Sequence record: MT884012.2
From: Escherichia phage vb_EcoS_bov11C2
DNA length: 44,700 nt
Strand: one strand, 5' to 3'
Shown here: positions 6,218 to 39,921 of the stretch, piece by piece
How positions within the stretch are numbered: position 1 is the first letter of the stretch
How the letters are laid out: each line of letters opens with the position of its first letter
The notes under the pieces: model-generated
Database searches by the model: none
Seen by the model: only the letters and a program-made list of their open reading frames with translations
Told to the model about the DNA's origin: nothing
Position numbers and translations under genes: made by a program

Positions 6218-6263
6218 CTGTTGGTGTGCAACCAATATACTGCAACCAACATCCGCAATGCAA
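6218..6263 (-). promoter_or_regulatory. sigma70-like promoter with ATTGGTTGCA motif pair and operator-like inverted repeat
   Basis: Minus strand reads TTGCAT (-35, 6258-6263), 18-nt spacer, TATATT (-10, 6234-6239), then GGTTGCACACCAACAG; the 22-nt TATATTGGTTGCACACCAACAG is identical to 39900-39921. Confidence 0.5.
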
Positions 6264-35891: not shown

Positions 35892-35918
35892 AAAAAGAGG
35901 CCCGCAGATTAGCGGGCC
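35892..35918 (-). terminator. intrinsic terminator after first early-left gene
   Basis: Minus strand GGCCCGC-loop-GCGGGCC followed by UCUUUUU; between gene 35927-36445 and gene 35627-35878. Confidence 0.55.
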
Positions 35919-35926
35919 GGAATATA

Positions 35927-36445
35927 TTAATCTTCCAGTTCGAAATAGGTTTCGACGATTTCTTTTAACTCTGTGTGGAAGTCTTCGACGTCGTCATCTT
36001 CCAGCTTGGCGATTGATTTGATCTCGAACGATTCCAGCAGGTCGTCGAATTCGTCGTTCGCGTCGTCGTCATCACCCCCGGCAATAATAGCGGCATACTG
36101 TTTGATCTCGTCGCGCATCTCTGCCAGCGGATCGGCATCTTTCTTACCTTTGCCTTTCGCCGGGGCTTTTTTACCCTTCGCAGGTTTTTCGTCTTCGGCT
36201 TCTTCATCGTCGTCATCTTCTACGACTTCTTTTTTGGACTTACCTTTCGCCGGGGCTTTTTTAGATTTAGCCGGTTTTTCGTCTTCGGCTTCATCGTCGC
36301 CATCTTCGACAACTTCTTTTTTCGCCTTAGACGGCTTCTTGTCTTCCTGTTTACCAACGGCAGCGCCAACGGTTTCATAATGCTTTGCAATGGTTTCCAG
36401 TGCTACTACGCCGCGAGTGATCAGGTTTACGATTTGCTCAAACAT
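35927..36445 (-). CDS. highly charged tandem-repeat protein, first gene of the leftward early operon
   Basis: ATG 36445 with RBS GGAG; two 29-aa tandem repeats (KKEVVEDGDDEAEDEKPAKSKKAPAKGKS) and acidic C-terminus. Confidence 0.5.
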   Translation of the reverse strand: MFEQIVNLITRGVVALETIAKHYETVGAAVGKQEDKKPSKAKKEVVEDGDDEAEDEKPAKSKKAPAKGKSKKEVVEDDDDEEAEDEKPAKGKKAPAKGKGKKDADPLAEMRDEIKQYAAIIAGGDDDDANDEFDDLLESFEIKSIAKLEDDDVEDFHTELKEIVETYFELED

Positions 36446-36641
36446 GGTATATCTCCGATTGGTTAAGTTTAGGTGTCGGCAGTTAACTTCGTCGGTGGCC
36501 TTAACATATTGCCAGGTTACGCGTTCTCCCGTTCGGGTAGTGGACCTGGTTATATAATCACGGTTGGGAATCCTGACACTTCGATCCGGCCCCTGCGTTG
36601 CCCCTCTCCAGTTTGCGTCCTGCATCCTGTCGACGGGGTGA

Positions 36642-36671
36642 ATAATAGATTGGTTGCAGGATGGGTGTCAA
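36642..36671 (-). promoter_or_regulatory. strong sigma70-like early-left promoter
   Basis: Minus strand TTGACA (36666-36671), 18-nt spacer containing TGCAACCAAT, TATTAT (36642-36647); about 190-nt leader to ATG 36445. Confidence 0.55.
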
Positions 36672-36682
36672 CAACTAATTTC

Positions 36683-36742
36683 AAAAAAAAAAGCGCCGAG
36701 GCAAAATGCGACGGCGCTAACCAATAAGAGACAATGAGACGG
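36683..36742 (-). ncRNA. candidate small RNA (orphan promoter plus strong terminator)
   Basis: Minus-strand terminator AGCGCCG-13nt loop-CGGCGCT followed by U10 (36683-36718) with no upstream gene on that strand; TTGAAA-N16-TAATAA promoter at 36749-36776. Confidence 0.25.
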
Positions 36743-36788
36743 GAATTATTATTACACGCGTGCGCGCCCGTTTCAATATCCAAAGGAT

Positions 36789-36834
36789 TTGACACCGTGC
36801 AGTTTTGGGTGTAGTTTCGTTGGTCATTAACCAA
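36789..36834 (+). promoter_or_regulatory. early-right promoter with inverted repeat at the start site
   Basis: TTGACA (36789-36794), 17-nt spacer, TAGTTT (36812-36817), then TTGGTcattaACCAA (36820-36834) before RBS GAGGG and ATG 36849. Confidence 0.45.
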
Positions 36835-36848
36835 CTGAGGGCAGAGCA

Positions 36849-37178
36849 ATGAATGTAAACGACGCAATCGAAATGTTAACGAAGACTGTTTGCAGTGAGA
36901 CAAGCCGGTCATGGGCATACACCGATGCCGTAGGGGCTGTGTTATTTGAAATCGAACGACTGCGCAGTATCGAAAAAGAATTGCGCGCCAGGCTGGAACT
37001 ACTCAACGGTACAGCAGCAAGCAAGCTGCAAAAACACAATGAAGAAATGGAAGAATACAAAAAGCAGGTTATCCGTTTGCGCGCCGAGGGCAAATCCTGG
37101 GCGATGATTGCTGAGTTGACCGGAATTAATCAGAGCACAGTTCGCTCCTGGGTACGCAATAATAAAACTTCTAAGTAA
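36849..37178 (+). CDS. HTH DNA-binding protein, candidate early regulator
   Basis: C-terminal helix-turn-helix SWAMIAELTGINQSTVRSWVRN; first gene of the rightward operon. Confidence 0.55.
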   Translation: MNVNDAIEMLTKTVCSETSRSWAYTDAVGAVLFEIERLRSIEKELRARLELLNGTAASKLQKHNEEMEEYKKQVIRLRAEGKSWAMIAELTGINQSTVRSWVRNNKTSK

Positions 37179-39453: not shown

Positions 39454-39548
39454 AATTTGCGCGCATTGGTTGCCGTTTTAAGTGTTTTTATCTGGTCGTA
39501 TTGGTTGCCGTGTAGTGTAGATATAATGAATAGTTATGCATTGAAACT

Positions 39549-39716
39549 GCATAAACTAAGCGGGACAAAAAGCGGGACAAACAAGGGGCGGGACAAAGCG
39601 GGACAGCACCCCCGTCCCGCCCCGGATGACGCGGCTTCCAGAGGAGCGGGACAGCGGGACAGCACCCCAGTCTTTCAGACTAGACGGGGGTCAACGGCCC
39701 CCCTCGTCTGAGACTG
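39549..39716. repeat. GGGACA iteron array R2 (copy of R1 units)
   Basis: 70-bp unit 39549-39618 and 52-bp hairpin unit 39665-39716 each differ by 1 nt from R1; six GGGACA copies. Confidence 0.85.
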
Positions 39717-39876
39717 AATAAAATCCGGGGATTGCAAAACACACGGCAGCATGATGCGAAGTGCGGTCGCGGATGAACTAGGCAACCAATGCTAGTAGCA
39801 TTATGCTGAGTGAAAAATGCGGTTTGCAGTTGCAGCAGATAGCGATCAACTTTTTCATGCGCGTGATTAATATTGG

Positions 39877-39921
39877 TTGCATCCGCCCAGGCACCCTGCT
39901 ATATTGGTTGCACACCAACAG
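39877..39921 (+). promoter_or_regulatory. sigma70-like promoter with ATTGGTTGCA pair and operator-like inverted repeat
   Basis: TTGCAT (39877-39882), 17-nt spacer, TATATT (39900-39905), TTGGTTGCACACCAA at the predicted start, then RBS AGGAGG and ATG 39933. Confidence 0.5.

Follow-up and report, generated by a model that had tools for sequence, protein, structure and literature searches.

A candidate small RNA gene between the two early promoters of the virulent Escherichia phage vb_EcoS_bov11C2

The OOP RNA of phage lambda, a 77-nt transcript that starts at the promoter pO and ends at an intrinsic terminator, works by annealing to the mRNA for a phage regulator (PMC12197685), and in Stx phages the short RNA made between PR′ and tR′ has a regulatory function as a small RNA in its own right (PMC7547250). 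Nearly all functional small RNAs known from phages belong to temperate phages and prophages, with very few from strictly virulent phages, and a 2025 review of phage small RNAs presents mainly temperate-phage examples (PMC12197685). Here we describe a predicted small RNA gene, termed the P-mid unit, in Escherichia phage vb_EcoS_bov11C2 (sequence record MT884012.2), a member of the genus Dhillonvirus (HK578-like virulent siphophages), whose complete genome of 44,700 bp is the window analysed. The unit lies in the divergent control region, an intergenic stretch of 403 bp (36446-36848) that also holds the leftward early promoter P-left and the rightward early promoter P-right. A preliminary description of this DNA had placed the element between two such promoters, and both were located, one on either side.

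Like lambda OOP, the P-mid unit would yield a short RNA from a sigma-70 promoter and an intrinsic terminator of its own, transcribed against the rightward early operon near replication genes, and the same mode of action is proposed for it. OOP, however, is a cis-antisense RNA that overlaps its target cII, whereas nothing is encoded opposite 36683-36740, so that pairing would occur in trans and be imperfect (15-16 bp with one mismatch in this phage, up to 16 continuous bp in one relative). The locus also differs from cis-antisense RNAs of the OOP and P22 sar type in that 36683-36740 is intergenic and the nearest plus-strand promoter starts rightward, at about 36825; no plus-strand promoter to the left of 36683 was found in the promoter scan. 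OOP has no sequence similarity to the P-mid RNA, and since the phage is virulent there is, unlike in lambda, no lysis-lysogeny decision to control.

In its layout the unit is like lambda 6S and StxS, the PR′-tR′ RNAs, in which an always-on promoter is followed within tens of nucleotides by a strong terminator and yields an abundant short RNA. The PR′-tR′ terminator of lambda is overridden by Q for expression of the late genes, whereas here the downstream operon consists of replication genes with a strong promoter of their own directly after the terminator: P-left, which scores 11/12 in the promoter scan, lies between the terminator and these genes. No Q-type protein or binding site was identified, in an analysis that included no search aimed at Q. 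The c4 RNA of phages P1 and P7 and the CI RNA of P4 block the ribosome-binding site (RBS) of a nearby phage gene through short complementary boxes, much as proposed here. P22 sar is likewise an RBS-blocking phage RNA (PMC12197685). Processing of a longer transcript yields the c4 and CI RNAs, whose action is on the same operon; sar is antisense over its full length, and all of them serve prophage immunity. The P-mid RNA, unlike these, would belong to a virulent phage, be a primary transcript and act on two divergent operons.

The Hfq-dependent small RNAs of phage origin (lambda PreS, VP882 VpdS and DicF; PMC12197685) share with the P-mid RNA a length of 50-90 nt, a single-stranded seed and a terminator with a long U-tail, but they belong to temperate phages or prophages, have mostly host targets and show no sequence or Rfam relationship to it. 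The unit can also be compared with promoter-coupled terminators, whose sequence serves the next promoter on the same strand as well; in these, the RNA 3′ end lies at most 35 bp, and typically about 10 bp, from the next start, and the T-tract is just upstream of the −10 element (Fletcher et al., bioRxiv 10.64898/2026.08.19.745784). Here the predicted 3′ end (about 36683-36688) and the predicted P-left start (about 36635) are about 50 bp apart, and the T-tract is at the position of an UP element. By analogy, the P-mid RNA would work most like lambda OOP, P22 sar or P1 c4 and would look like the PR′-tR′ RNAs (6S and StxS). The class that most likely applies is that of a promoter-to-terminator, trans-acting small RNA, undescribed and from a virulent phage.

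The elements of the P-mid unit are as follows.

36771-36776, minus strand: −35 hexamer of P-mid, TTGAAA, invariant in 26 unique sequences and forming the left edge of the conserved block
36754-36770, minus strand: P-mid spacer CGGGCGCGCACGCGTGT, 17 nt and G+C-rich, ending in the TGn (36756-36754) of an extended −10
36748-36753, minus strand: −10 hexamer of P-mid, AATAAT, invariant, lying within TAATAATAA, in which alternative registers are possible
36741-36747, minus strand: discriminator separating the −10 from the predicted start; both its sequence and its length (6-7 nt) vary
36683-36740, minus strand: predicted transcript of about 56-58 nt, from G36740 to the U-run
36719-36740, minus strand: unpaired 5′ region GUCUCAUUGUCUCUUAUUGGUU, the candidate pairing seed, with two GUCUC repeats and AUUGGUUA
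36692-36718, minus strand: terminator hairpin, with a 7-bp outer stem, a 2x2 internal loop, a 3-bp inner stem and a UUU loop
36683-36692, minus strand: T-run (the U-tail of the RNA), ten T here and 8-14 T in relatives

The hairpin, the U-run and the promoter were thus all found where the preliminary description had put them, with two details to be amended. It had given a 7-bp GC stem with a 13-nt loop followed by U10. The arms (AGCGCCG, 36718-36712, on the 5′ side; CGGCGCU, 36698-36692, on the 3′ side), the 13-nt loop (36711-36699, in which the inner stem GCA/UGC sits) and the ten T are present, but the first T of the run pairs with A36718, so that the stem has six G-C pairs and one A-U pair and the free tail has nine U. 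The same A36718 is the final A of AUUGGUUA and the first base of the stem. The promoter had been read as TTGAAA-N16-TAATAA, which is present, but the better register has a 17-nt spacer and AATAAT with the TGn. In this register P-mid is predicted from its sequence with a score of 10/12 and an extended −10, and has correct hexamers and spacing. The scan found 3 promoter-like sites against 1.9 ± 1.8 expected by chance; since such sites are not rare by chance, the case for the P-mid unit rests on conservation and not on consensus matching.

The predicted 58-nt RNA folds into a 22-nt free 5′ end, the hairpin and the U-tail (−16.7 kcal/mol, z = −3.85, none of 200 shuffles as stable), and a 71-nt version gives z = −3.1. 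Its short non-coding body is closed by an intrinsic terminator. On the plus strand an A-run precedes the hairpin and no T follows it, which makes the terminator a one-way element. Hfq-dependent small RNAs carry a U-tail of about 7 or more after the terminator hairpin. The P-mid RNA has this layout, with a terminator hairpin, 9-10 U (8-14 in relatives) and an unpaired 5′ end of 22 nt, and Hfq may be involved in its action. The length of the T-run varies among otherwise near-identical genomes, by homopolymer slippage or sequencing error; such differences may tune the strength of the terminator or its spacing to P-left. The P-mid spacer contains the palindrome CACGCGTG and a strictly alternating purine-pyrimidine run of 14-15 nt, and its near-invariance suggests a bound regulator or sensitivity to supercoiling.

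Parts of the unit have been noticed by annotators before. The GenBank record of HK578 annotates three sigma-70 promoters genome-wide, all in this control region, and the record of WF5505 annotates the P-mid hairpin as a terminator. What is new is their union as an RNA gene.

The 101-bp unit was found in 154 phage records of INPHARED, in 147 of them at ≥95% identity. A primase at ≥80% identity is present in 156 records, and the unit is thus carried by essentially every Dhillonvirus. Conservation was measured per segment in an alignment of 26 distinct versions taken from GenBank, IMG/VR and metagenomes; relatives that need to be told apart are referred to below by handles such as L015. The start of the rightward gene, its leader and the P-right spacer have 3-32% invariant columns and a mean pairwise identity of ~80%. 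Between the −35 and the −10 of P-mid, 24 of 29 columns are invariant (98% mean pairwise identity). None of the seven bases before the predicted start is invariant (0/7, 75%), and the first 22 transcribed bases, with 21 invariant positions and 99.3% pairwise identity, are the most conserved segment of the control region; the hairpin has 19 invariant columns out of 26 (94%). The geometry of the promoter and this sharp onset of invariance together place the probable start of the transcript at G36740. In L015 the P-mid spacer is 2 nt shorter, and the next −10 register is usable.

The conserved block starts at the P-mid −35 hexamer also in HK578 and in L035 (primase only 58% identical), in which the rightward gene and its leader have been replaced. 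A different helix-turn-helix (HTH) gene of 142 aa (HK578, L021 35540-36003; L035, ~1900-2500) there takes the place of window positions 36796-37178, and the boundary of the exchange lies just past the P-right −35, leaving the block of P-mid, small RNA and P-left whole. An HTH_23 / sigma-70 region 4-like domain is present in both variants of the first rightward gene.

Compensatory changes are found in the terminator stem. In the lineage of L015, L022 and L033 the stem reads AUCCCCG/CGGGGAU against AGCGCCG/CGGCGCU, with two pairs altered on both sides, and one A-U pair of the inner stem has become G-U. These changes were read directly from the alignments, as MAFFT placed the 3′ arm of L018 one column off register. 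L018 itself is a distant contig (N-terminal 330 aa of the primase 67% identical) with the same layout: TTGCGC, a 17-nt spacer, TATTAT, a body of ~70 nt, the hairpin AAUCCCCAG/CUGGGGAUU, 13 T and then a leftward promoter. The RNAs of L018 and of the window have just the 10-mer CUCAUUGUCU in common; promoter, body and hairpin differ. The pattern of conservation and the design of L018 are as expected of a promoter and a start site followed by an RNA whose 5′ end is constrained in sequence and whose terminator is constrained in structure. No further relatives of the L018 type were found in INPHARED, and a scan of IMG/VR with a degenerate seed plus T-run gave 106 matches, of which only 15 of Dhillonvirus type and the L018 contig were real. 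The more distant Cornellvirus W5, which has a related primase, has a short divergent region in which the unit is not present.

Within the unit no protein-coding gene was accepted. The preliminary description had seen no gene upstream of the terminator; one open reading frame (ORF) does run into the stem and is annotated in some records.

36717-36827, minus strand: ORF of 36 aa, annotated for example as bas16_0049 (GeorgBuechner) and in other records; judged not to be a gene

The ATG-ORF is absent from 7 of the 26 unique sequences and has an internal double frameshift in 5 more, while the DNA is conserved; it is thus missing or frameshifted in 12 of the 26 versions, and the original statement holds to the extent that the ORF is not conserved as coding. 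With T-run lengths of 8-14, no reading frame is possible across the T-run on either strand. The 36-aa 'hypothetical protein' therefore appears to be a recurrent mis-annotation of a non-coding unit. These comparative data (conservation, stem compensation, the L018 layout and the broken ORF) fit closely the unit of promoter, short transcript and terminator first proposed for this locus.

Known RNA families gave no match. Searches of the whole window with the covariance models of Rfam 15 returned 0 matches at gathering level (best sub-threshold score 20.9 bits against a threshold of 72), and ARAGORN detected no tRNA or tmRNA. Elsewhere in the phage, the exact complement of the conserved 10-mer CUCAUUGUCU does not occur beyond the gene itself.

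A free 5′ end, a 3′ hairpin and a long U-tail are the usual build of an enterobacterial base-pairing small RNA. As the predicted RNA has this anatomy, partners were looked for, with its 5′ region taken as GUCUCAUUGUCUCUUAUUGGUUA. The genes and predicted sites concerned are the following.

36445-35927, minus strand: first leftward gene, ATG at 36445, encoding an acidic protein without a Pfam match
36849-37178, plus strand: first rightward gene, ATG at 36849, encoding 109 aa with an HTH_23 / sigma-70 region 4-like domain (E = 2e-7)
36450-36465, minus strand: predicted left site, UAACCAAU-C-GGAGAUA, covering the Shine-Dalgarno sequence of the first leftward gene
36828-36852, plus strand: predicted right site, UAACCAA (36828-36834) ... 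AGAG-CAAUGA, extending over the start codon of the HTH gene

Both first genes have UUAACCAAY just upstream of a Shine-Dalgarno sequence of the GGAGA type. The left site is predicted to pair with nucleotides 8-23 of the small RNA (8 bp, one mismatch, 7 bp) at −18.7 kcal/mol, a value reached by 3 of 1000 shuffles, and the right site at −20.5 kcal/mol (9/1000). In L020 the right site forms a continuous duplex of 16 bp at −23.9 kcal/mol (0/1000), and in L032 it reaches −22.5 kcal/mol (1/1000). L035, with a different rightward gene and an unrelated leader, would pair via AGACAAUGAG at the start codon at −22.3 kcal/mol (2/1000), and the L018 RNA would pair with its own left site through the anti-Shine-Dalgarno sequence ACUCCUGAA on UUUAGGAGU at −20.9 kcal/mol (11/1000). 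As a natural control, 22,068 segments of 24 nt from the same genome were used: 0.58% reach the left energy, 0.9% the right and 0.036% both. TAACCAA occurs in 5 copies in 44.7 kb, 3 of them in this 400-bp region and each on the strand that the RNA model needs. GAGAC-type Shine-Dalgarno sequences are found in 6 of the 62 phage initiation regions, all belonging to early-region genes, and a wider early-gene regulon is possible on this basis. The start-codon context CAAUGAG, complementary to CUCAUUG of the RNA, was also observed in the replacement genes of HK578 and L035 and in L018.

Several observations weigh against the assignment of these targets. Target prediction had been proposed in the preliminary description, and its phage part gave a divided answer: the left and right sites rank 2nd and 4th among the 62 phage initiation regions, but 23% of shuffles have a top site at least as good as the best of these 62. 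The seed is rich in pyrimidines and moderately complementary to numerous purine-rich ribosome-binding sites, and in HK578 other genes outrank the two neighbours as pairing partners. The right sites of HK578 and L018 are weak (150 and 155 of 1000 shuffles as good), the left site of L015 is moderate (49/1000), and L015 has a one-base deletion in the seed without clean compensation. The left and right sites share a motif, so that their tests are not independent, and because the seed is invariant, true co-variation of RNA and target cannot be scored. Other causes of motif conservation are also at hand. The left initiation region CUUAACCAAUCGGAGAUAUACCAUG (36443-36467, minus strand), with its UUAAC element upstream of the Shine-Dalgarno sequence, closely resembles the phage T7 gene 10 leader of pET vectors (UUUAACUUUAAGAAGGAGAUAUACAUAUG), and from this likeness UUAACCAA, which stands upstream of the Shine-Dalgarno sequence, could be a translational enhancer instead of, or besides, a small-RNA site. 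AACCAA is in addition the core of the abundant motif GCAACCAA, which makes a DNA-binding cause of its conservation possible. In the literature searched, neither a small RNA nor a transcription map of any Dhillonvirus was found, nor were RNA-seq, Northern blot or start-site data for this genus.

Taking both sides together, we hypothesize that the P-mid unit is a small non-coding RNA gene of the phage whose product pairs with both early initiation regions, a reading that we hold tentatively and place somewhat short of even. Its parts differ in strength: from sequence comparison it is probable that a discrete RNA is made and is under selection, and that this RNA acts on these two initiation regions is plausible but less likely than not. 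In the proposed mechanism, host sigma-70 RNA polymerase would start at P-mid, probably at G36740, transcribe leftward and stop at the hairpin and U-run, releasing a product of about 57 nt in which 22 unpaired nucleotides at the 5′ end precede a stable hairpin at the 3′ side and a long U-tail. The free 5′ end would pair with the translation initiation regions of the acidic protein gene (36445) and the HTH regulator gene (36849), and this pairing would limit or time translation of both first early genes. The terminator would also halt polymerases from P-mid before they cross P-left, and the T-run with GAAATTAGT would occupy the UP-element position of P-left. The most far-reaching version is doubtful: one small RNA of a virulent siphophage, with an invariant seed, would serve as a post-transcriptional timer or limiter of the first genes of both early operons and perhaps of other GGAGAC-type early genes, its targets would include an HTH regulator that may read the GCAACCAAT promoter motif, and the same DNA would be insulator and UP element.

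The roles of the unit at the DNA level involve the two promoters that flank it.

36642-36682, minus strand: P-left, with GAAATTAGT at 36682-36674, TTGACA at 36671-36666, an 18-nt spacer containing GCAACCAAT, and TATTAT at 36647-36642
36790-36818, plus strand: P-right, with TTGACA at 36790-36795, a 17-nt spacer and TAGTTT at 36813-36818, read from the sequence

A counterpart of P-left is annotated in the HK578 record. P-right has a −10 too weak for the promoter scanner; its −35 is kept in 26/26 sequences, and the equivalent site is annotated in HK578. In the 26 unique sequences the P-left spacer is variable and that of P-mid nearly invariant. P-mid and P-right face away from each other, their −35 hexamers 13 bp apart, and their equivalents overlap in L018, so that the two promoters may interfere with or stimulate each other. 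The terminator ends ~10 bp before the P-left −35 hexamer, and its position directly upstream of P-left lends partial support to the insulator role that the preliminary description had offered as an alternative. Relative to the P-left start, the T-run lies at about −57 to −48 and GAAATTAGT at −47 to −39, and both are conserved. In position and A/T pattern they match the full UP-element consensus that Estrem, Gourse and colleagues are said to have defined, and by this analogy they may form an UP element of P-left. Such cis roles are compatible with an RNA function, and those of insulator and RNA are not mutually exclusive.

That the unit acts purely in cis, at the level of DNA and transcription, and that its RNA is functionless is unlikely. 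P-mid would then be a partner or competitor of P-right through shared upstream DNA or supercoiling, the terminator would shield P-left and the T-run would be its UP element. The back-to-back −35 hexamers, the overlap in L018 and the conserved T-run and GAAATTAGT upstream of P-left are all in keeping with this, as is the P-mid spacer, invariant and Z-DNA-prone, which hints that the promoter responds to supercoiling or to a bound factor; that terminator sequences are also used by adjacent promoters is reported to be common (bioRxiv 10.64898/2026.08.19.745784). However, a by-product RNA needs neither 21 of 22 invariant bases directly after a freely varying discriminator nor the retention of CUCAUUGUCU in L018 while all else changed, and the distance from the end of the terminator to the P-left start is ~50 bp, not the ~10 bp of the described coupled class.

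Equally improbable in our estimate is that the RNA is real but has host mRNAs or host small RNAs as targets, in the manner of lambda PreS or of a sponge, and that its match to the phage RBSs is incidental. The free seed, hairpin and long U-tail are those of a typical trans-acting enterobacterial small RNA, a conserved host target would be in keeping with a seed that does not vary among phages from numerous E. coli, Shigella and Sodalis hosts, and described phage small RNAs often act on host genes (PMC12197685). Against this, a scan of 5,426 complete E. coli genomes that covered stretches of ~20 nt or more found no match to the unit, and the excess complementarity to both adjacent phage initiation regions would have to be a coincidence.

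The invariant 22 bases might instead be sites for a DNA-binding regulator of the phage, for example the HTH protein, which would control P-mid, P-left and P-right via AACCAA- or GAGAC-type sites, with the complementarity of the RNA as a side effect. The domain is found in both variants of the first rightward gene. GCAACCAA occurs in 19 copies against ~1.4 expected, mostly intergenic and beside −10-like sequences, including one in the P-left spacer, and palindromes are present at the P-right start (GTTGGT-N5-ACCAAC) and in the P-mid spacer (CACGCGTG). We nevertheless consider this quite improbable. Both the RNA gene and the initiation regions carry TAACCAA instead of GCAACCAA; TAACCAA is not enriched outside the control region, and all three of its copies there are oriented as pairing by an RNA requires. 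The left arm of the P-right palindrome varies without compensation, and a protein site leaves the compensatory changes of the hairpin unexplained. As an observation in its own right, GCAACCAA (usually TGCAACCAAT) is often paired and typically lies directly upstream of a −10-like TATAnT, with sites for example at 6228, 6242, 22391, 25252/25264 (an inverted pair), 27162, 27179, 30121, 33739, 33755, 36650, 39466-39904, 40633, 43114 and 43137. It resembles a promoter or operator motif specific to the phage, and the HTH protein encoded by the first rightward gene may be what reads it.

It is very improbable that the short transcript primes or activates replication at an origin beside the primase-helicase gene. 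Promoter-dependent origins are known in other phages, and the unit lies in the main divergent control region ~450 bp from that gene, but the RNA would be released at a strong intrinsic terminator, neither iterons nor, apart from the T-run, an A+T-rich unwinding region can be made out, and the phage has its own primase. The same idea was once proposed for lambda OOP RNA as a primer and has been abandoned (PMC12197685). That the terminator merely ends a protein-coding gene, the 36-aa ORF of 36827-36717, has next to no probability: it is annotated in GeorgBuechner and other records and its stop codon TAG overlaps the stem, but besides being lost in 7/26 and frameshifted in 5/26 sequences it reads TAT at the stop in L015 and L022, lacks a Shine-Dalgarno sequence and starts within the P-right leader behind a sole, weak candidate promoter (9/12).

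The two operons that diverge from the control region differ in content. The leftward operon, ~12 kb long, carries replication and recombination genes, and in the rightward operon the primase-helicase gene comes after the HTH gene. Between the first leftward gene, which it follows immediately, and the ~12 kb of replication genes we observed a second terminator-like hairpin (35899-35918, minus strand; GGCCCGC-N6-GCGGGCC with a T-rich tail), and the same site is annotated as a terminator in WF5505. With so strong a terminator-like hairpin at this position, most of the leftward operon would need read-through or antitermination.

The very 5′ end of the leftward early transcript forms a leader element of ~155 nt (~36466-36630, minus strand) that many, but not all, Dhillonviruses carry. 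The core of this element, GGAGAGGRG..ACGCAGGGGC..GAUCGWAGUGUCAGGAUUCCCAACCGUGA...AGAACGC...GGCYACCGACGAAG, matches intergenic DNA of unrelated phages, among them Warwickvirus tunus, Murrayvirus Lumpael, Enterobacter phage Arya and Klebsiella IME279, at 86-94% identity. In every one of these contigs, at least nine in number, the leader stands at +1 of a sigma-70 promoter and before an unrelated gene; copies were located in L038 (~600-830), L039 (~630-865), L044, L045, L048, L051, L054, L058 and L061. At least three helices covary, one of them with six different sequences (CCAGG/CCUGG, CCCGG/CCGGG, CUAUC/GAUAG, CAUAAC/GUUAUG, CAUUGG/CCAAUG and CGCAC/GUGCG), and a GNRA-capped hairpin alternates between CCC/GGG, GCC/GGC and CCG/CGG. 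The folds were made for each sequence separately; RNAalifold on the MAFFT alignment missed the most variable helix through misalignment. The leader has no Rfam match, a scan of bacterial genomes with its 16-mers gave matches at chance level (~280 expected) with a single real one that was phage-like, and a scan with its second block gave nothing further. The element has the appearance of a structured RNA not described before; it may act in cis as a leader, for instance as a processive antiterminator, or may be an RNA in its own right.

A non-homologous analogue of the P-mid arrangement was seen in the distantly related Kagunavirus fBC-Eco01 (L024 1329-1682, minus strand), in which a host-type promoter is followed by ~235 nt without a gene, an annotated terminator and the next promoter. 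By this analogy, the design in which the leftward promoter is preceded by a short early transcript that codes for no protein may be a recurring one.

Dhillonviruses are common and easily grown phages of E. coli, are represented in the BASEL collection and are used in studies of defence systems and of phage therapy. Since the predicted targets of the P-mid RNA are specified, the idea is directly testable. If it is true, it would correct a recurrent 36-aa 'hypothetical protein' annotation and would make the P-mid region unsuitable as a neutral insertion site in phage engineering. A conserved RNA of 57 nt in the master control region of these phages would then provide a simple model for RNA control of an early lytic programme.

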